The notes under the pieces were generated by a model. It was not told the DNA's origin. It did not search any database and worked only from the letters and a program-made list of their open reading frames with translations. From Bacillota bacterium (GTDB lineage Bacteria; Bacillota_I; Bacilli_A; RF39; UBA660), in contig DOEC01000035.1 of the NCBI GenBank assembly GCA_003524085.1, positions 7,796 to 71,795 of the forward strand: DNA of 64,000 nucleotides. Reading direction: 5' to 3'. Of the stretch, positions 2,701 through 48,862 are shown piece by piece; the stretch's first letter is position 1, and each line of letters starts with the position of its first letter. The position numbers were made by a program, and so were the translations under genes.

Positions 2701-3222
2701 CTAAATACCATATTTCTTTTTATTTGTATCATAAAATAGAAAATACTTAGGTGGTTTATATGTTAACAAACCAAAAGATACATAAGTAACAATTATAACT
2801 ATAATTAAGAATACCTTATTAATATTGAGTTCTCTTTCGCTCAGAATCTTATAACTAACATATGCCATAAGAATGTAGTCAAGTAGCATTAACCCTATAG
2901 AAATAAACATGGTTTCTCCAAATATTTTATAAAGTGGTAAATATATAATTAAATACAAGGCAATACTTAAAATACTAGTTAGCACAGTACTAAAAAAGTG
3001 ATTATTGTAATAAATGTTAAACTTATCTAATAAAAACTTATCAACTAATCCCCAAACTAAAATAGCTGATACAAATATCTTCATATGTTCCCATATACTT
3101 TCATTAACTGGAAAAAATATACTTGTAACTACATTAGGCCACCACTCATACATAAAATGAAATAAAAAACTTAATGCAAAAACACCAATAACATTAATAA
3201 TTTTAATCTTTTTTAAATTCAT
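2701..3222 (-). CDS. integral membrane protein (5-6 TM), unknown function
   Basis: 173-aa ORF, hydrophobic helices throughout, starts MNLKKIKI. Confidence 0.55.
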   Translation of the reverse strand: MNLKKIKIINVIGVFALSFLFHFMYEWWPNVVTSIFFPVNESIWEHMKIFVSAILVWGLVDKFLLDKFNIYYNNHFFSTVLTSILSIALYLIIYLPLYKIFGETMFISIGLMLLDYILMAYVSYKILSERELNINKVFLIIVIIVTYVSFGLLTYKPPKYFLFYDTNKKKYGI

Positions 3223-3304
3223 GAATCCACCTCATACTAATATTATATTCAAATAAGCCTTTAAAATAATAGAAACTTTTGGTATAATTAACTTGTGAAA
3301 AAAT

Positions 3305-3679
3305 ATGTATGTTTTAATGAGTATAAAGCCAAAATATGTAGAAAAAATACTAAGTGGAGAAAAGAAGTATGAATACAGAAAAACACTTTTAAAGAAAGAT
3401 GTAGAAAGTATACTTGTGTATTCAACCTCTCCAGTTAAAAAAGTAGTCTGTGAAATAAAACTACTTGAAGTAGTAAAAGGAACACTTGAGTATGTATACA
3501 GTAAAACCAATATAGAAGGTGGTATTACTTTAGAAGAATTTAATAGCTACTTCAAAAACAAAAATGTCGCCTATGCATACAAACTAGGAAGTATAAAAAA
3601 ATTAGACTTAACACTAAAAGAAATAGGCGTTCCAACTGCGCCTCAGTCATACCAATACATAGAAAGGATAGAATTATGA
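3305..3679 (+). CDS. ASCH (PUA-like) domain protein
   Basis: N-terminus MSIKPKYVEKILSGEKKYEYR matches the canonical ASCH start; TATAAT about 22 nt upstream; 4-nt ATGA overlap with next gene. Confidence 0.75.
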   Translation: MYVLMSIKPKYVEKILSGEKKYEYRKTLLKKDVESILVYSTSPVKKVVCEIKLLEVVKGTLEYVYSKTNIEGGITLEEFNSYFKNKNVAYAYKLGSIKKLDLTLKEIGVPTAPQSYQYIERIEL

Positions 3680-4113
3680 AAGTAATATTTTTAGATGTAG
3701 ATGGAGTACTAAACAATGATGGATATTTTGAAAGAACGAAAAAAGAAAAACAAAATAGAATAGAATTAGACGATGAAAACATAAAATGCTTAAAAGAAAT
3801 AATTGATTTAACAGGTGCAAAAGTAGTAGTCACTTCAACTTGGAAAGAACTTCGTATATATAGCAAGTTAATTAGTTATCTAAAAAACTTTGGAATAGAA
3901 GTATATGATAAAACTGTTCACATGTCTTATAACAGGGGAGACGAAATACGTGAGTATCTATCTACTCATGAAATAGATAACTTTATTATATTAGATGACG
4001 AAATATTTAAAGACTTTAACGAACTAATTTTACATCTAGTAAAAACAGATTTTTATAACGGTGGACTAACAGAACAACATAAAACATTAGCCCTCAAGTT
4101 AATGAATAATTAA
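3676..4113 (+). CDS. HAD-superfamily phosphatase-like protein (HAD_SAK-type)
   Basis: MKVIFLDVDGVLNN has the HAD motif I DxDGxL; small 145-aa stand-alone HAD; translationally coupled to ASCH gene. Confidence 0.65.
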   Translation: MKVIFLDVDGVLNNDGYFERTKKEKQNRIELDDENIKCLKEIIDLTGAKVVVTSTWKELRIYSKLISYLKNFGIEVYDKTVHMSYNRGDEIREYLSTHEIDNFIILDDEIFKDFNELILHLVKTDFYNGGLTEQHKTLALKLMNN

Positions 4114-4123
4114 TCTATTCATC

Positions 4124-4151
4124 TTGAATGAGTTAAAAAATGTAATACAAT
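4124..4151 (+). promoter_or_regulatory. candidate sigma-A promoter (TTGAAT-16nt-TACAAT) driving a short plus-strand RNA
   Basis: -35/-10 match by eye; no CDS follows; transcript would end at hairpin 4210-4247. Confidence 0.3.
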
Positions 4152-4157
4152 ATAAAT

Positions 4158-4247
4158 GCATGGTACATAAAGTACAATTGGTAACTGAATGTCTACCTAT
4201 GTTTTTGTGGACATTGCCCTAAAAGGCGATGTCATTTCTTTATTTCT
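4158..4247 (+). ncRNA. candidate ~90-nt antisense sRNA (type I antitoxin candidate) overlapping 3' end of minus-strand small-peptide mRNA
   Basis: promoter at 4124-4151, intrinsic terminator 4210-4247, no ORF. Confidence 0.3.
4210..4247 (+). terminator. rho-independent terminator (GACATTGCC-loop-GGCGATGTC + ATTTCTTTATTTCT)
   Basis: 9-bp stem with one mismatch followed by T-rich run. Confidence 0.5.
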
Positions 4248-4324
4248 ATCACTAATAATAGCAATAAAAACAAAGCAATATTCACTAGAATCAACACGCA
4301 TATTCTATACGGTCTCTTCTTCAT
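4232..4324 (-). CDS. 30-aa hydrophobic peptide MKKRPYRICVLILVNIALFLLLLLVIEIKK; candidate type I toxin
   Basis: strong SD AAAGGAAAGGAGG 7 nt upstream of ATG; single TM helix with charged ends; GC-rich structured 5' leader; strong promoter upstream. Confidence 0.35.
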   Translation of the reverse strand: MKKRPYRICVLILVNIALFLLLLLVIEIKK

Positions 4325-4412
4325 GGATATTGAACCTCCTTTCCTTTTCAACCAAGTTCCCCTGATTTACTTAAGGTCGGTACGCGCGCTGCACTTCCTG
4401 CTCCATATTAAC

Positions 4413-4441
4413 ATTATAACGTAATTAGTAAGGTAAGTCAA
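4413..4441 (-). promoter_or_regulatory. near-consensus sigma-A promoter on minus strand (TTGACT-17nt-TATAAT) for the small-peptide mRNA
   Basis: read directly from the sequence. Confidence 0.5.
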
Positions 4442-4581
4442 TACTAAAAACAAATAAATTTTCGCTACAATTTTTAAAATCTGCAATAATTGTGGATAAC
4501 TTAAAACTTATTAACAAAAATTCCTAAAACCAGTAGAAAAAAATAAGTTTTTGATGTAAAATCATATTAGGAGGTTTGATT

Positions 4582-5256
4582 ATGGGAAAGATAATTGTTA
4601 TTGAAGGAACAGACTGTTCTGGAAAAGAAACTCAGTCAAAATTATTAAAAGGTTACTTAGAACAAAATGGCATTAAGGTGGCAACATTCAGTTATCCACA
4701 ATATAACACACCAACTGGCAAAATAATAGGTGGTCCACTTTTGGGAAAACCAAGCATATGCCCATCATGGTTTAATAACTATGTAGAAGTTGATAGCAAA
4801 GTTGCAAGTCTTTACTTTGCAGCCGATAGACGCGCATCACTTCCAGTACTAAAAGAATTAATAAACAATAACGAAATTGTAATAATTGATAGATACATCT
4901 ACTCAAACATGGGACACCAAGGTTCTAAAATAGAAGACAAAGAAGAAAGACTAAAAATGTATAAATTCTTAGAAACTCTAGAATTTGACTTACTAGAACT
5001 TCCTCGTCCAGACTTAGTAATCTTCCTTTATTTACCATACTCTTATGGAGAAGAATTAAAGAAAAATCGTGTTGAAACACTAGACGAAGCAGAAAAAAGT
5101 CAAACACACTAAATAAAAAGTGAAAGAACATATCTAGAACTAACCGAGCTTTATGGCTTTGAAAAAATTGACTGCTTTACAAACGGCACAGTAAAAACAA
5201 GAGAAGAAATAAATAAAGAAGTAATCTCGCATGTTAAAAAACTAACTTTAAAATAA
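4582..5256 (+). pseudogene. tmk: thymidylate kinase (tmk) interrupted by an in-frame TAA at 5110-5112
   Basis: P-loop IVIEGTDCSGKETQ; RBS AGGAGG before ATG 4582; ORF stops at 5112 but the same frame continues IKSERTYLELTELYGF...KKLTLK* to 5256, giving a ~225-aa Tmk-length product. Confidence 0.6.
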
Positions 5257-9406: not shown

Positions 9407-9414
9407 ACTAATAT

Positions 9415-9620
9415 AAGTTTTGTTGACAAAAGAGTAGTAATTAACATTTCTTTTATAGAGAGTTAGTGTTAGGTGCAAACTAACAAAGAAAGTTAATGAA
9501 CTTGCTTTTAGAAAAACTTCGCTAGTAAGCGTTATAACTATAAAGATGCATAATACTTTATGAATTAAGGTGGTACCGCTGTAGTTTGCAGTCCTTAAGT
9601 CATAAAGTTTATTTTTTTGA
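9415..9620 (+). promoter_or_regulatory. T-box riboswitch leader (Leu-tRNA sensing) upstream of leuS operon
   Basis: Stem I AGAGA element near 9466; conserved T-box sequence AATTAAGGTGGTACCGC at ~9563-9580; T-run terminator 9607-9617; CUU/CUC codons in the specifier region. Confidence 0.6.
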
Positions 9621-9630
9621 AAGGAGTACT

Positions 9631-9999
9631 ATGAAAGAAAAAATAATAATTAACACGATATACTTTTTAGCCTCATACCTGATTATATTCTTAGTCTATG
9701 TTTTCATTGTCAATAGAAAAAAGAAAACATACGCTGATGCTAAAAAAATGACAGACGTAACATACCTGACTACAAAGTTTAAAATAGATAAAAGAAAAAC
9801 AGACTATAATACCCTGAAGTGGTACATAAACTTTATAAACCCACTCATAATATCAACAACATTTGTAGTAATATCAAATATAAAATCATTCACTATGAGC
9901 TTACTTGTAGGTTTCATAGTAATGTTAGTATTAATTTATTCATTATATGAAATAATAGGAAGAATATTAAAAAAGAAGGAGTTTGATAAAAATGTATAA
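9631..9999 (+). CDS. small membrane protein (3 TM) between T-box leader and leuS
   Basis: RBS GAAAGGAG before ATG 9631 (M16 of ORF 9586); overlaps leuS start. Confidence 0.5.
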   Translation: MKEKIIINTIYFLASYLIIFLVYVFIVNRKKKTYADAKKMTDVTYLTTKFKIDKRKTDYNTLKWYINFINPLIISTTFVVISNIKSFTMSLLVGFIVMLVLIYSLYEIIGRILKKKEFDKNV

Positions 10000-12403
10000 T
10001 TTTGAAGAAATAGAAAAGAAATGGCAAAGTTTTTGGGAAAAAAACCATACTTTTGAAGTGAAAAATGAAGGGGCTAATCCATACTACATACTAGTAGAGT
10101 TCCCATACCCTAGTGGAGAAGGACTTCACGTTGGACACGTAAGAAGCTATACTGCACATGATATAATGGCAAGAATGAAAAGAATGCAAGGATATAACGT
10201 ATTATTTCCAATGGGTTTTGACGCTTTCGGTGCCCCAGCTGAACAATACGCAATTAAAACACACACACATCCAAAAGATGTAACAAACAAAGCTATCTCT
10301 CATTTTAGAAGTCAAATGAAAAGAATAGGTTTTAGTTTTGACTGGAGTAGAGAATTCTCGACAACTGACCCAGAATACTATAAATGGACACAATGGCAAT
10401 TCATACAATTTTTTAAACACAACATGGCCTATAAAGACACAATACCTGTTAACTGGTGTCCAAACTGTAAAATGGTACTTTCAAATGAAGACGCAGCAGG
10501 TGGAGTTTGCGAAAGATGTGGAAGTGCTGTAGAACAAAAAGAAAAAAGTCAGTGGATGCTAAAAATGAGCGAGTACGCAGAAGACTTACTTACTGGACTA
10601 AACGATACTCACTTTGCTGAAAAAGTAAAACTAGGTCAAATAAACTGGATAGGTAAATCTACTGGTGTAGAAGTAGACATAAATATTGTAGGCGGAGGAA
10701 AATTTAGCATATTCACAACTTGTATAGAAACAATATATGGAATAACTTTCTTTGTAATCGCACCAGATGGTAAACTTATTAAAGAACTTATGCCTAGAAT
10801 AGAAAACAAAAATGAAGTAAATGAATACATCAAAGAAACACTAAAAAAATCAAATATGGATAGAACAGAACTAAATAAAGGAAAATCAGGTGTAGAACTA
10901 AAAGGCTTAAAAGCTATAAATCCAGTTAATGGAAAAGAAGTTCCAATATTTATTGGAGACTTTGTATTAGGTTCATATGGTACAGGTGCTGTAATGGCTG
11001 TTCCTAGTCACGATCAAAGAGACTTCGAGTATTCTAAAGTTCACAATATTCCAATGATCCAAGTAATAGACGGTAGAGAAACCACTTCTTCTGCATTTGA
11101 AAAACTTGACTACTTAGGTAAGGGCTGTAAACTTATAAACTCAGAAGAATTTACTGGCTTAACTGTAGAAGAAGCAAAAGAAAAAATCACTAAAAAACTA
11201 GAAAACATGGGTATCGCAAGACGTGTAAACAACTACAAAATGAGAGACTGGATTTTCAGTAGACAAAGATTCTGGGGTGAACCAATTCCAATGATAAACT
11301 GTCCTAAATGCGGATGGGTTCCAATGAAAGAAGAAGATTTACCACTTTTACTTCCAGATGTAGCAGAATATGAGCCTACTGATACAGGAGAAAGTCCACT
11401 TGCAAAAATAACTGACTGGGTTAACACTACATGTCCAGTGTGTGGCACTCCTGCAAAAAGAGAAACAGACACAATGCCACAATGGGCTGGATCTTCTTGG
11501 TATTTCCTAAGATTCATGGATGCACATAACAATAAAGAATTTGCAAGCATGGAAGCAATGAAATACTGGGGAAAAGTAAATTGGTACAACGGTGGAATGG
11601 AACACACAGCAAGACACTTACTTTATGCAAGATTCTGGGTACAAATGCTATACAATTTTGGTCTTGTTCCAAATAAAGAAATGATAGATGTAAGAGTTTC
11701 CCATGGTATGATACTAGGTTCAAACCATGAAAAAATGTCCAAGAGTAAAGGTAACGTAATAAACCCTGATACAGTAGTAAATGAAGTAGGCGCAGACGCT
11801 TTAAGAGTTTATGAAATGTTTATAGGTGACTATCAACAAGATGTATCTTGGTCAACAGACTCGCTAAGAGGTTGCAAACGTTTCTTAGATAGAATATACA
11901 AGTTAGGAGAAAAACTAAGTGATAAAGAAGGTTACACTAACGAAACACTAGTACATCAAACAATTAAAAAAGTAACAGATGACTTAAGTAATCTTAAATT
12001 TAACACAGCAGTATCTCAACTTATGATACTAACAAACGACTTAGATAAAAATGAAACAATAACAAAGAATGACTACAAAATACTTTTAACTTTACTAAAC
12101 CCAATTGCACCACACATTACTGAAGAACTAAACGAAAAATATGCTTTAGGAAAACCAATCTGTGAAAGCTCTTGGCCTACATTCGATGAAGAAAAAACAA
12201 AAGAAAGCACAGTAAATATTGCAGTACAAGTAAATGGTAAATTAAGAGGTACTATGAACGTACCTTCAAAAACAGACAAAGAAGAAACTTTAAGACTTGC
12301 AAAAGAATTAGACAATGTTAAAAAACACTTAGAAAATATTACTATCCTAAAAGAAATAGTAGTACCTAATAAAATAGTAAATATAGTAACAAAACAGAGC
12401 TAA
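9992..12403 (+). CDS. leuS: leucyl-tRNA synthetase
   Basis: HIGH-type motif PYPSGEGLHVGHVRSY; KMSKS; ~800 aa class I LeuRS; start at M4 of ORF 9983 with AAGGAG RBS. Confidence 0.95.
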   Translation: MYNFEEIEKKWQSFWEKNHTFEVKNEGANPYYILVEFPYPSGEGLHVGHVRSYTAHDIMARMKRMQGYNVLFPMGFDAFGAPAEQYAIKTHTHPKDVTNKAISHFRSQMKRIGFSFDWSREFSTTDPEYYKWTQWQFIQFFKHNMAYKDTIPVNWCPNCKMVLSNEDAAGGVCERCGSAVEQKEKSQWMLKMSEYAEDLLTGLNDTHFAEKVKLGQINWIGKSTGVEVDINIVGGGKFSIFTTCIETIYGITFFVIAPDGKLIKELMPRIENKNEVNEYIKETLKKSNMDRTELNKGKSGVELKGLKAINPVNGKEVPIFIGDFVLGSYGTGAVMAVPSHDQRDFEYSKVHNIPMIQVIDGRETTSSAFEKLDYLGKGCKLINSEEFTGLTVEEAKEKITKKLENMGIARRVNNYKMRDWIFSRQRFWGEPIPMINCPKCGWVPMKEEDLPLLLPDVAEYEPTDTGESPLAKITDWVNTTCPVCGTPAKRETDTMPQWAGSSWYFLRFMDAHNNKEFASMEAMKYWGKVNWYNGGMEHTARHLLYARFWVQMLYNFGLVPNKEMIDVRVSHGMILGSNHEKMSKSKGNVINPDTVVNEVGADALRVYEMFIGDYQQDVSWSTDSLRGCKRFLDRIYKLGEKLSDKEGYTNETLVHQTIKKVTDDLSNLKFNTAVSQLMILTNDLDKNETITKNDYKILLTLLNPIAPHITEELNEKYALGKPICESSWPTFDEEKTKESTVNIAVQVNGKLRGTMNVPSKTDKEETLRLAKELDNVKKHLENITILKEIVVPNKIVNIVTKQS

Positions 12404-32066: not shown

Positions 32067-32339
32067 CAATTAAACCTTTTGAAAAAATATAGATTAAATT
32101 TATCAATGTATTTTGTTTAATAATATTAATACATCATTTTTCTAGGATAATTTCTTCGTAAGACAAAAAAATCAAACTCTCGATTGATATCACATATTAA
32201 GTTCAACTAAATAGTTTGAACGGATTCGCCAATGAAACGATAATAAAGATTATCTGAAACTCCTAAAGTAAAACTAGCAAACAACCAATTTCTAATAATA
32301 TTCTAACATTAAAACTATTGTTATGTCTCGAAAAAATTC

Positions 32340-33420
32340 CAGTTTCTTAATAAAAGTATATTGATTAGGAAGTGTTTGTATGTTAAAAATGAAAATTAAA
32401 TTATTTTTATTGGAATATAAGAGAATATTTTATGTAATTCTATTTATATCACCATTGCTAGTTTAGATAAAAATACCAAAATATCAATCCAGATGATCCA
32501 ACAAAAATTGGAGTGCTGGGGGACCTTATTGGGAACGGTTGTTGGTGGAGTTTTCTCTTTAATTGGATCTATATATGTAAAATAATAAACAAATAGTTAG
32601 TGAATCAGAAATAAAGAAAAAATATAATATATAAACCTTTATATGATAAATTATTAGATACGAAAAAAATAATTGAAGAAGAAAATCGTTATCCTACATA
32701 TATTAGTTATAAGAAAGATCAGCAAACAATAAGAAGACATCCACAAATTATTGCATGAGGCAGGGTATGTAATGATAGTAGAATTTTAGATTCTCCTAAA
32801 ATTTTAAAGACACAAAATCAAAAGTATATTAAATCTATTGAAGACTATTTTTTGATAAGAAATAGTGCAAATGATATTATTCAAAATATAATTAATAAAA
32901 CTTTACGAAGCGAACTAGGTAAAGAAAATACAATTGCAAATTTAGAAGTTGTCTATCTGATGAAATATTAGAAGATACACTTAATGGAAGTAGATTGAAG
33001 GAATATTGTGATACGAAAGCCAAGATGAAACTCTAAATGAAAAATATAATATTGCTGCGAGTATAGTATTAGATAAATGCAAAAACATTGAAAAAATAGA
33101 AAACATTAGAAATGCGTATTATAATTGGGCAAAAATGCAAAATGAGACAATAGAATTATTAATTTTAGAAGTCAATTTAAAATATGAGAAACAAAGAAGG
33201 GAAGAAAATTAATACTTATGGAATGGATAAAAATGAAGTAATAAGAGAATTGAAATTGGAAATAGAGAAAGACCCTGATTTAAAATATTACTTAAATAAT
33301 GAATATGTTGAAAAAATGTTTGAACTGTTGATAGAAGTCATTGAAAATGTTATTGAAAAAAATAATAAGAAAGTAGAAGAAGATAAAAAAGGATTATTTT
33401 GCAAGAGGATTTAAATATTA
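32340..33420 (+). pseudogene. region of degenerate gene fragments (multiple short ORFs in alternating frames)
   Basis: examples: MLKMKIKLFLLEYKRIFYVILFISPLLV*, MIQQKLECWGTLLGTVVGGVFSLIGSIYVK*, and a longer stretch broken by stops; ORF 33184-33414 may be an intact 76-aa remnant. Confidence 0.3.
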
Positions 33421-33784
33421 AAAAGTAGCATACTGATCACACTAAGCCGTAATCATAGGTTTTTTTACATAAAACCTCGTGTAACTCAAGTAACACTTAT
33501 TTAAGTTTTCAGTAATAGACTAAATCTATTTCTTCTAATTTAACACGCTTTTACTCACTTGTTTTAAAGACTTTTTAAGCCCATTTGAAGCACTTTTCTT
33601 GTATTCTTTATAAAATATGATTTGCACTGATTTAAATCAACATCCTTATTCATTTTTTTTACAGAAATAGTATTAATTATATTGTTTACTTCTTAATCTT
33701 AAATTAATATATTTATTATTCATATTATAAATGCAAGAATTTAGATAAATATATTTCAGTGTACTTTCCAGAGTATAAAATATA

Positions 33785-33815
33785 AAAAAGCCCTTGTTAC
33801 AAGGACTTATTAACA
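33785..33815 (-). terminator. hairpin + U-run downstream of tRNA-Gly
   Basis: minus strand GTCCTTGTAACAAGGGC followed by TTTTTTATATTTT. Confidence 0.4.
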
Positions 33816-33820
33816 TTATT

Positions 33821-33895
33821 TGGAGCAAGCGATGGGAATCGAACCCACGTCTCAGCCTTGGCAAGGCCGCGTACTAGCCGTTGTACTACGCCTGC
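33821..33895 (-). tRNA. tRNA-Gly (anticodon GCC), CCA encoded
   Basis: minus-strand GCAGGCG-TA-GTAC..GTAC-G-CGGCC-TTGCCAA-GGCTG-AGAC-GTGGG-TTCGATT-CCCAT-CGCTTGC-T-CCA folds as cloverleaf; anticodon loop TTGCCAA. Confidence 0.9.
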
Positions 33896-34031
33896 ACTTG
33901 TTTTTTCAAAATGCATAAATATCATATCATAAATTATTAGAAAAAACAAGTGTAAAATTTGTGTAAAAATCTAATATTTTGTTTGACTATTTTACTTTTT
34001 TATTATACACTTTCTATAGAGGGTAGGAAAT

Positions 34032-35037: not shown

Positions 35038-35124
35038 TAAAGTAGCCTTTTTATAGGTTGCTTTTTTCTTTATCTTTGTATATAATATTTACAGAAGATA
35101 TGAAACGAAAGGAGTATTTTATTC

Positions 35125-35270
35125 ATATTTAGCGCCAGAACCATAAGTGGTTGACGAGGTTAACAGTTATCGATTTTTCGGCGGATGCTGTTACGGATAA
35201 GTAGTTCGTTAGAAGTATTACAAAAAGTAAAATCAATATTACAACAAAATATACTTCATGCTAAATTTTT
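35125..35270 (+). ncRNA. glmS ribozyme (GlcN6P-sensing self-cleaving riboswitch)
   Basis: core AGCGCCAGAAC...GGTTGACGAGG...CGGCGGATG immediately upstream of glmS. Confidence 0.75.
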
Positions 35271-47869: not shown

Positions 47870-48592
47870 ATGAGAAATGAAGTGCAAGAAATATATATAA
47901 ATTTAGATGATTCTGGTAAATTAAGTTCTAAAGAAGACATTAGTGTGTATGGCGGTGTCGTATTTTTAAGTAAAAAAGAGAAAGATAAATTTATAACTCA
48001 GTATAAAAAGATTATAAATGAGGTCAAGTGTGAATACTGCAAGATATGTAATCACGCCTGTCCTGAGATTAAAAATACAAATATTAAGCCAGAACATAAG
48101 CGTTGGTTAATGAATTACATTAAAAATTATTTTGTAGTTGGGTTAATAATTGAAAATAAAAAGGTGTATGAAGAAATATTACAAAGTAAGGCATCAAAAG
48201 GAAGATTTACTGATTATGCTATTCGTAGGCTTATTAAAGAAATATTAAAGTCACTAATTAAAGAAGGCAAAATCGATCCATATAAGCCTGTTAAGATTGT
48301 ATTAAATATAGACCAACAAAGTACAAAAAGTAATGGATATTATAATTTACGTGATGGTATATTAGAAGAGCTTAAATATGGAATATCTGCCTACAATTAT
48401 TCTGTTAAGAGAAAGAAAATAGTTTACTCTGATTTAGATATTTTAGTTACTTATCAAGTATCTGCTAAGAGTTATGTTATTCAAGCAGCTGATTTACTAG
48501 CAGGTACAATAAGAAGAACTGTACTTGACAACATTGAAAACTATGGAAGAGCTTTATCAAAATTTGTGGACTTAAAAATAAAACTTCCATAA
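47870..48592 (+). CDS. DUF3800-family protein (paralog of preceding gene)
   Basis: LDDSGKL...GGVVF and IQAADLLAG motifs. Confidence 0.65.
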   Translation: MRNEVQEIYINLDDSGKLSSKEDISVYGGVVFLSKKEKDKFITQYKKIINEVKCEYCKICNHACPEIKNTNIKPEHKRWLMNYIKNYFVVGLIIENKKVYEEILQSKASKGRFTDYAIRRLIKEILKSLIKEGKIDPYKPVKIVLNIDQQSTKSNGYYNLRDGILEELKYGISAYNYSVKRKKIVYSDLDILVTYQVSAKSYVIQAADLLAGTIRRTVLDNIENYGRALSKFVDLKIKLP

Positions 48593-48595
48593 AAG

Positions 48596-48620
48596 AAAAA
48601 AAGCCATTACTGGCTTTTTC
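48596..48620 (+). terminator. rho-independent terminator AAAAAGCCA-TTAC-TGGCTTTTT
   Basis: read directly from the sequence. Confidence 0.6.
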
Positions 48621-48862
48621 CCAATTAGGGCGGCGTACTTAGAATTACGCTTAAATATAAATATTCGCGACCTAACTATCGACCTGACGAGATTTCTCTC
48701 CGGTAATACAATAATACACTATTTTTATTAAAATGTCAAACATAATTTGACATTGTGTCAAGAAAACAGTTACATTTTGTATTATTGTATATAAATATTA
48801 TATGCGTTATATGCCTAATTATACTTTATTAAAAAAGTAAATATATAATGTTTATATCAATA

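Follow-up and report, generated by a model that had tools for sequence, protein, structure and literature searches.

A candidate type I toxin–antitoxin-like cassette with overlapping 3' ends in uncultured gut Bacilli

Genes and features at the locus

We analysed a DNA stretch of 64,000 nucleotides (contig DOEC01000035.1, positions 7,796 to 71,795; hereafter the window) from a Bacillota bacterium and concentrated on a cassette of about 340 bp at window positions 4124–4469, which carries a gene for a short hydrophobic peptide on the minus strand and a putative small RNA gene on the plus strand. The cassette is located between a HAD_SAK_2 gene and a thymidylate-kinase-like (tmk-like) gene. It is preceded by genes for Amidoligase_2, NlpC/P60-like, DUF6512, ASCH and HAD_SAK_2 proteins (the last at 3676–4113) and followed by the tmk-like gene (from 4582) and the genes for a 132-amino-acid protein, an MFS transporter and a GH31 enzyme. 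Practically the same arrangement, nearly base for base, was present in ten human-gut metagenome contigs (L001–L010), and the closest named genome is that of 'Clostridium sp. CAG:628', while other relatives are labelled as uncultured Bacilli or Tenericutes. About 70 related loci, denoted by L and a number, served as the comparison set.

The original prediction had described a promoter, a GC-rich leader, a Shine-Dalgarno (SD) sequence and a 30-codon open reading frame (ORF) on the minus strand, together with a promoter-like site and a terminator reaching over the 3' end of this ORF on the plus strand. All of these elements were recovered, and they are listed here with the other features of the cassette.

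4124–4151, plus strand: promoter-like site TTGAAT-16-TACAAT of the small RNA gene, matching 9 of 12 consensus positions
4158–4247, plus strand: predicted small RNA of about 90 nt, its start inferred from the −10 box
4184–4198, plus strand: conserved core ACTGAATGTCTACCT of the small RNA, forming the 3' side of its 5' stem-loop
4210–4247, plus strand: intrinsic terminator with a 9-bp hairpin (4210–4233) and the T-rich tail ATTTCTTTATTTCT (4234–4247)
4232–4324, minus strand: peptide gene, allele A, translated as MKKRPYRICVLILVNIALFLLLLLVIEIKK plus stop (30 codons)
4238–4275, minus strand: 17-bp hairpin in the 3' half of the ORF
4276–4332, minus strand: start-codon hairpin of −17.3 kcal/mol, pairing the SD–AUG spacer and the AUG with codons ~13–17; corresponding to inverted repeat I9
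4325–4406, minus strand: 5' leader of the peptide mRNA, ~82 nt, GC content 0.44 versus 0.21–0.33 in the flanks
4335–4339, minus strand: SD sequence GGAGG, 10 nt upstream of the ATG (4324)
4345–4372, minus strand: invariant leader segment AAGTAAATCAGGGGAACTTGGTTGAAAA, 28 nt, single copy in the window
4413–4441, minus strand: promoter-like site TTGACT-17-TATAAT of the peptide gene, matching 11 of 12 consensus positions
In the leader or peptide gene, minus strand: motif AAGTAAATCAGGGGAACNTGGTTGAAAA, distinct from the motif of the small RNA
4265–4291: left copy of direct repeat D1, 27 nt, TAAAAACAAA..., from a repeat search
4445–4471: right copy of direct repeat D1, near the right edge of the cassette (~4469)

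The DNA around the locus has a GC content of only ~27%, and promoter-like sites with at least 9 of 12 consensus positions occurred 8 times in 1.4 kb against 7.4 expected, those with at least 11 of 12 positions 10 times in the whole window against 6.9 expected. Promoter-like matches by themselves are not above chance in such AT-rich DNA, and ORFs of 30 codons are frequent in the window as well. The locus is lifted above chance because related loci keep the whole arrangement, except for the minus-strand −35 box in the copies of the CAG:628 type. The strong expression of the peptide named in the original prediction was deduced solely from the promoter match.

The peptide gene and its two alleles

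The peptide gene was found in two alleles, of which A codes for 30 amino acids and was intact in 24 loci, while B codes for 36 amino acids (MKKRKFIIKVLNRLIIVLIILTIMLVIIKTDTYPLG) and was intact in 10 loci. Both peptides start with MKKR and contain a continuous hydrophobic core with one predicted membrane-spanning segment, and they end differently, with EIKK in allele A and KTDTYPLG in allele B. Only three sites varied among the 24 intact A copies, all of them synonymously, and the intact copies of both alleles taken together showed seven synonymous and two conservative non-synonymous changes (I8L and T22A), a bias with P = 6e-4 if the synonymous fraction is taken as computed (0.22) and P = 4e-3 if it is set generously to 0.30. 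The comparison of A with B gave a pS of 0.70, which is saturated, and a pN of 0.37, corresponding to a dN/dS of ~0.25. The conservation with synonymous bias on which the original prediction had made its peptide gene depend is therefore present. The ORF is also the least variable part among the allele A cassettes, with 3 of 90 variable columns compared to 15 of 127 upstream and 70 of 156 downstream. Moreover, T at the second codon position, which is a mark of hydrophobic residues, was observed in 18 of the 30 codons of allele A, compared to 6 and 9 in the other frames, and in 21 of the 36 codons of allele B, with 5–9 in the other frames of both alleles. As judged from these comparisons, the peptide ORF is coding and under purifying selection.

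Annotation never called the peptide gene in any of the fetched loci. An exhaustive protein search against 1.84 billion representatives yielded no homologue, and a 42-amino-acid allele B query against 5.8 billion clusters gave a single weak and partial match (E = 5.5e-4, covering 24% of the query). Neither peptide was assigned to a family in Pfam or NCBIfam up to E = 10, and nothing significant was found for peptides A and B in PHROGs. An origin of the peptide from the signal anchor of the neighbouring NlpC/P60 protein was considered and rejected, as there was no significant similarity to the N-terminus of that protein.

Promoter, leader and structure of the peptide mRNA

The −10 box of the putative peptide promoter is kept in nearly all copies, with a weakened version (TATAAA) in L034 and L043. 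The −35 box has been lost from the CAG:628-type loci, where it is replaced by CCTGAT, and some of these loci also have the weakened −10 box. In the leader alignment, the 5' half is GC-rich and variable and the 3' half nearly invariant. The segment 4345–4372 is even identical in alleles A and B, although their ORFs differ at ~50% of the bases, and a ribosome-binding site rich in purines is retained in allele B, equally far from its start codon. A small hairpin (AAUCAGG/CUUGGUU at 4350–4367) lies within this segment, and RNAalifold did not return any consensus structure beyond one small hairpin from 16 leader variants (−1.85 kcal/mol). No known RNA family, covariation or complementarity to the small RNA was found to account for the invariance of the segment.

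The coding part of the predicted mRNA is strongly structured. None of 1000 synonymous-codon randomisations of allele A was as stable as its start-codon hairpin, and the corresponding hairpin of allele B, which is formed by a different sequence with −7.4 to −7.7 kcal/mol, was matched by 4–5 of 1000. For the 17-bp hairpin in the 3' half of the ORF, only 1 of 1000 randomisations was as stable, and the structure is specific for the mRNA strand, with −16.2 kcal/mol compared to −3.6 kcal/mol on the complement. Allele B forms an 18-bp hairpin at the equivalent place of its ORF (10 of 1000 randomisations as stable), and the polymorphisms at ORF positions 63, 64 and 75 of allele B and 66 of allele A preserve the pairs of the hairpin. 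The fold of the whole peptide mRNA reached z values of −4.4 to −6.5. According to these fold predictions, codon choice is selected to maintain two mRNA hairpins in both alleles, despite their divergence of ~50%.

The small RNA gene on the plus strand

The predicted small RNA consists of a 5' stem-loop, an invariant core, a short variable spacer and an intrinsic terminator, and was recorded in 33 copies from 26 loci. Its fold has a z value of −2.9 for the long variant represented in the window and of −4.4 and −5.2 for the commoner short variant. The core, which occurs as a single copy in the window, does not vary among L011, L012 and L013, loci whose detection did not depend on the RNA motif. 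The same three loci, identified without the promoter motif TGTAATACAAT, also keep this motif together with a TTG-type −35 box, and the latter is likewise present in orphan copies of the RNA gene. In L068 and L070, again found independently, the motif reads TATAATACAAT. Because TGTAATACAAT was part of the pattern used for the metagenome search, its presence in L033–L054 is by construction.

The terminator at 4210–4247 is the only terminator-like site in the region 3600–5000. Its hairpin includes the stop codon of the peptide gene (4232–4234) and its T-rich tail spans the last 4–5 codons, which means that the plus-strand terminator overlaps the minus-strand ORF end at 4232–4247 and that the two genes are convergent with overlapping 3' ends. 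Two types of terminators were distinguished, an A-type (GACAUUGCC/GGCGAUGUC) and a B-type with a longer stem (GACAUUUACCC/GGGUAAGUGUC). Between them, two pairs have changed with full compensation, and there are two wobble changes; this compensation was read directly from the sequences, as RNAalifold was confused by the two terminator lengths when run on the RNA copies. The terminator and the 3' end of the ORF always switch together as allele A or B.

No conserved ORF was detected on the RNA strand, and a 58-codon plus-strand ORF starting from the RNA core was rejected because it is not conserved and runs into a stop after 14 codons in allele B. Searching the window and the tandem locus described below against Rfam, at gathering as well as permissive thresholds (E up to 5–10), produced only chance microRNA-like matches at the cassette. 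As neither the leader nor the small RNA has an Rfam match, the leader does not represent a known riboswitch.

Distribution, duplication and decay of the cassette

The cassette is patchily distributed. HAD is followed directly by tmk in L027–L031 and L055–L064, the latter group representing a very common species which is free of the cassette. The HAD–tmk spacer measures 114 nt in L028–L030, ~40 nt in L027 and 0–4 nt in L031 and L055–L064. Aligning the filled site with the empty sites of L028–L030 placed the edges near 4130 and 4469, ~340 bp apart, and a short direct repeat (ATAATTTnnAAAAT-like) was recognised at both ends. The 114-nt empty sites are either deletion scars or sites which were never occupied. 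A 12-nt inverted repeat (I2) near the ends was examined as a possible terminal repeat and rejected, as most of its right arm is also present at cassette-free sites.

A metagenome scan with the RNA motif provided 22 further loci, most of them at the HAD–tmk site. Four loci were situated elsewhere (L036, L037, L045 and L048). In two of these, L036 and L037, the cassette is flanked by the 3' end of uvrB on one side and by a sulfatase/LTA-synthase-like gene on the other; two complete cassettes in tandem (B, then A) are present in L037. The tandem duplication of the cassette at the uvrB site also comprises ~130 nt of the uvrB 3' end (L037 6300–7400; L036 5600–6000). Read-through of the peptide mRNA at this site would enter the sulfatase/LTA-synthase-like gene, which is encoded on the same strand.

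Additional orphan RNA genes with promoter and terminator, all of them with B-type terminators, were present beside full cassettes in L036, L040, L042, L045 and L053. In other loci the peptide gene had decayed and the RNA gene was kept, either by frameshifts (L012, L034, L065, L066 and L069) or by a stop codon truncating the peptide (L047). L068 and L070 lack the 180 nt that separate the D1 copies, and thereby the promoter, the leader and most of the ORF, but have retained the RNA gene. A peptide gene without the RNA gene was not encountered among the loci sampled through their neighbouring genes. One further locus, L013, shows HAD followed by two RNA genes with A-type and B-type terminators and then a convergent uvrB gene (2560–2900), and looks like a hybrid of both sites. 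The repeated cassette may have mediated a genuine rearrangement there, or the metagenome bin may be chimeric, and because of the latter possibility L013 was not counted as independent evidence.

No match of the cassette was obtained by BLAST against phages and plasmids or by tblastn against plasmids, and viral contigs were searched with both the RNA motif and the leader motif without a match. Matches of a leader 17-mer in viral contigs were dismissed as unrelated and mostly coding sequences.

Neighbouring genes and other features of the window

The DUF6512-ASCH-HAD_SAK_2 block upstream of the cassette (window 2701–4100) is 91–99%, mostly 95–99%, identical to that of 'Clostridium sp. CAG:628' (L011), compared to only ~50–80% in its flanks, and the high identity stops exactly at the left edge of the cassette. 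The block looks like a recently exchanged island. Cassette-free relatives are also without the ASCH gene, as observed in the loci with this region fetched (L028, L031 and L055–L063). In L064, one strain of the common cassette-free species, an insertion-sequence-like gene for an rve-family integrase (1–584) takes the place of DUF6512 upstream of HAD.

On the other side of the cassette, the tmk-like gene (4582–5256) has a T at window position 5110 instead of the C of the reference strain L001, which changes CAA to TAA and shortens the predicted protein from 224 to 176 amino acids. The gene was called at the full 224 amino acids in 10 of 10 loci of the same species and in 68 close database variants, and the stop could be a strain-specific pseudogene mutation or a sequencing error.

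Elsewhere in the window, a T-box leader (9414–9599, plus strand, 104.5 bits) precedes a small ORF and the leucyl-tRNA synthetase gene (9983–12403) in an ordinary arrangement. Further Rfam matches above the gathering score were a glmS ribozyme (35120–35267, plus strand, 83.3 bits), a DUF3800-I RNA (48587–48711, minus strand, 66.6 bits) and one tRNA (33824–33895, minus strand), the latter within a region of ~2 kb (32067–34031) without any ORF of at least 110 codons.

Comparison with known type I systems

Type I loci are known for small hydrophobic peptides, antisense RNAs, tandem copies and genes missed by annotation (PMC2887945, PMC6563280, PMC6562991), and all of these general features have counterparts here. 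Both peptides are below the limit of about 60–70 amino acids and have the single membrane span usual for such toxins (PMC2887945, PMC6563280), and a separate antisense RNA gene is predicted in silico to be complementary to the putative toxin mRNA. The genes escaped annotation and occur in multiple copies, as seen from the tandem in L037, the extra RNA copies and the uvrB site. As regards the structured toxin mRNA with restricted initiation of translation known from type I systems, both alleles have the predicted start-codon hairpin; the SD sequence, however, is predicted to pair no more than that of ordinary genes.

The original prediction had matched the locus with txpA/RatA and bsrG/SR4. This holds for the topology, and does not extend to a sequence relationship, a prophage context or a terminator of the peptide mRNA. 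The txpA/RatA system from the skin element of Bacillus subtilis resembles the cassette in its convergent genes and in an RNA pairing with the 3' end of the toxin mRNA, and is controlled through decay of the duplex rather than by a block of translation (PMC6562991, PMC3531473). Decay-type control is expected for the cassette as well, where simulated binding of the RNA left the SD sequence unchanged. In contrast to txpA/RatA, the cassette shows no sequence similarity and no prophage-like context, its charges are mainly N-terminal, and a terminator of the toxin mRNA is not recognisable. TxpA has 59 amino acids, compared to 30 for the peptide of the window. Toxin mRNAs of the txpA/RatA and bsrG/SR4 group have their own terminator in or beyond the antitoxin gene, giving an overlap of ~75–120 nt, whereas the minus strand here continues from the shared hairpin into an A-rich tract. 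The bsrG/SR4 system of the B. subtilis prophage SPbeta likewise combines a small membrane peptide with a highly structured toxin mRNA, and SR4 is a 3'-overlapping antisense RNA that makes first contact through its terminator loop (PMC3834814, PMC6562991). However, SR4 tightens the masking of the SD sequence from 4 to 8 bp, an effect not predicted for the cassette, which moreover has no homology to bsrG/SR4 and occupies a chromosomal, non-prophage site between the HAD_SAK_2 and tmk-like genes.

Convergent overlapping genes are also known from the modules CD2517.1-RCd8, CD2907.1-RCd9 and CD0956.2-RCd10 of Clostridioides difficile, whose toxins were missed by annotation and are without homology to other families (PMC6563280). 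These toxins have 34–59 amino acids, are hydrophobic at the N-terminus and rich in lysine at the C-terminus, and are encoded in prophages or beside CRISPR arrays, whereas the peptides described here have 30–36 amino acids, a charged N-terminus and neither of these contexts. In the par locus (Fst, RNA I/RNA II) of Enterococcus and in Fst-Sm/srSm of Streptococcus mutans, the two genes converge towards one shared hairpin as in the cassette, and a peptide of ~30 amino acids is similarly encoded in an intergenic region (PMC3543317, PMC6562991). The cassette differs from par/Fst by having a U-tract on the plus-strand side of the hairpin only, and it contains neither an Fst/Ldr signature nor a Pfam match. 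The hairpin of par/Fst is a shared bidirectional intrinsic terminator, and the Fst systems contain direct repeats through which both RNAs are complementary at their 5' ends, across the start of toxin translation; such 5' repeats and a bidirectional terminator were not found in the cassette. Finally, zorO-orzO, ibs-sib and ldr-rdl of Escherichia coli share with it the tandem duplication within one intergenic region and a presence or absence among strains that alters the intergenic length (PMC2887945, PMC3919570). They belong to a different phylum and show no homology, and in those E. coli systems with a described mechanism, such as ldr/Rdl, the target of the RNA is the 5' region and not the 3' end of the toxin mRNA (PMC6562991). 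Membership in a named family fails on sequence, on prophage context and on the 5' repeats and terminator of par/Fst, and the cassette is best regarded as a candidate for a new family.

Proposed function and alternative explanations

Judging from the comparative evidence, we consider it fairly probable that the region 4124–4469 belongs to a new type I toxin–antitoxin-like family whose genes overlap at their 3' ends. The architecture proposed by the original prediction is supported by the purifying selection on the peptide ORF, by the conserved RNA gene, by the convergent 3' overlap and by the patchy, duplicated and peptide-losing behaviour of the cassette; a terminator of the peptide mRNA is not recognisable and no extra masking of its SD sequence is predicted. 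Asymmetric decay, patchiness and duplication are typical of type I toxin–antitoxin loci. If both promoters are active, as we infer, the minus strand would give rise to the mRNA of the 30-residue peptide, which has one predicted membrane span. This mRNA would be heavily structured by the start-codon hairpin, the 17-bp hairpin inside the ORF's 3' half and a hairpin on the stop codon. The plus strand would be transcribed to a structured small RNA of ~80–90 nt, the terminator stem-loop and U-rich tail of which would be antisense to the stop codon and the last 4–5 codons, and its body to whatever mRNA sequence extends 3' of the ORF. Pairing of the small RNA with the peptide mRNA may then take place in the cell at the 3' end of the latter, probably initiated at the complementary terminator loops as in bsrG/SR4. 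The resulting duplex would either strip the mRNA of its protective 3' hairpins or become a substrate for a double-strand RNase, for example RNase III, and the mRNA would be degraded before enough of the presumed membrane-damaging peptide builds up, in the mode of RatA/txpA. Formation of a duplex at the 3' end followed by decay would be the likeliest mode, because the access to the SD sequence stayed unchanged in constraint folding and no complementarity to the leader beyond chance was evident.

Several observations weigh against this interpretation. Neither the peptides nor the RNA resemble any of the known toxin or RNA families, and the strongest charge cluster of the peptides is N-terminal (MKKRPYR in A, MKKRK in B), whereas most Gram-positive type I toxins carry a charged cluster at the C-terminus (PMC6563280). 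No terminator-like site for the peptide mRNA is present on the minus strand between 3600 and 4232. Because such a terminator is not recognisable, the overlap of the two RNAs may amount to ~38 nt or extend up to the whole RNA gene of ~90 nt. A special masking of the SD sequence was considered and rejected, as its predicted pairing of 0.6–0.78 is on a level with the 27 ordinary genes compared from the window (mean 0.60). With the overlap held in a duplex to simulate RNA binding, the access to the SD sequence did not change, nor did that to the AUG in most variants, and the complementarity of the small RNA to the leader and SD region was no better than that of shuffled sequences (32–33 of 60 as good). 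The promoter-like site of the RNA gene matches 9 of 12 consensus positions and that of the peptide gene 11 of 12, which is opposite to the usual balance, where the antitoxin promoter is the better match. Moreover, the metagenome sample was chosen by the RNA motif and cannot reveal loci with a peptide gene only, and the asymmetry of decay rests on few related lineages.

The main rival explanation is a small membrane protein that does no harm and might, for instance, modulate a membrane complex; its synthesis would be tuned by a cis-antisense RNA, and neither toxin nor addiction would be involved. We regard this as rather unlikely; its anatomy would be the same and it differs only in toxicity. 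The purifying selection and the selected mRNA structure point to the importance of the peptide and its control and not to toxicity, the near-consensus promoter fits any expressed product, the ribosome-binding site is not specially masked, and the charged N-terminus with a membrane span is similar to ordinary signal anchors in this genome, such as that of the NlpC/P60-like protein at 1608. Such a protein would not lead one to expect that the peptide is repeatedly lost and the RNA kept, with the reverse never seen in the neighbour-sampled loci, or that orphan RNA copies persist. Patchiness, tandem duplication and two deeply diverged alleles are also unusual for a small housekeeping protein, and no partner gene is consistently linked, since the two sites have unrelated neighbours. 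It would be very improbable that the plus-strand element is the main gene, either as a trans-acting small RNA or as the terminator region of the ASCH-HAD operon, with an unrelated peptide and an incidental overlap. The occurrence of the RNA gene alone in several loci, the high conservation of its 5' domain and promoter, and the location of its terminator ~100 nt behind the HAD stop codon, where it would end that operon too, fit such a role. On the other hand, the core has no other complementary site in the 64-kb window, cassette-free species do without any terminator between HAD and tmk, the terminator covaries with the 3' end of the ORF as allele A or B, and both genes are found together at the uvrB site and are co-duplicated in L037. 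That the cassette is a non-functional remnant or a selfish repeat, derived from a stranded 5' fragment of a membrane protein gene or from a miniature mobile element with chance promoters, appears extremely improbable: it would explain the short flanking direct repeats, the two sites, the resemblance of the peptide to a signal anchor and promoter-like matches of a kind common in AT-rich DNA, but is contradicted by the bias towards synonymous substitutions, by the ORF being the most conserved part of the allele A cassettes and by hairpins that are maintained through codon choice. Neither significant similarity to the NlpC/P60 N-terminus nor a match to phages or plasmids was obtained, and the RNA and leader motifs were absent from viral contigs.

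Going beyond the type I module favoured here, the cassette might be a balanced addiction system with two alleles, in which near-identical arms surround a swappable centre; we consider this decidedly unlikely. Both promoters, the 3' half of the leader and the RNA core indeed form near-identical arms in A and B, and the coding sequence and the terminator stem-loop constitute the centre, which would exist as two ancient alleles and may set which RNA neutralises which mRNA. In such a system, the orphan B-type RNA genes may protect their carriers from incoming B cassettes as a kind of 'anti-addiction' immunity. The 1.4-kb DUF6512-ASCH-HAD_SAK_2 block, which is 95–99% identical between species with flanking genes at ~70%, also ends exactly at the cassette, which may stabilise this exchanged island or delimit its recombination.

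Significance

The finding would leave the ideas on how type I systems work unchanged and would not surprise a specialist. We know of no type I toxin–antitoxin system described in these gut Bacilli, and if the peptide is toxic, the cassette would represent such a family in uncultured, small-genome relatives of 'Clostridium sp. CAG:628', with a peptide that gene callers have never reported. The locus provides a clean natural data set with two diverged alleles, tandem and orphan copies, precise deletions of the putative toxin gene and selection of hairpins at the codon level, and this natural variation makes specificity, control by mRNA structure and toxin loss testable with few constructs.

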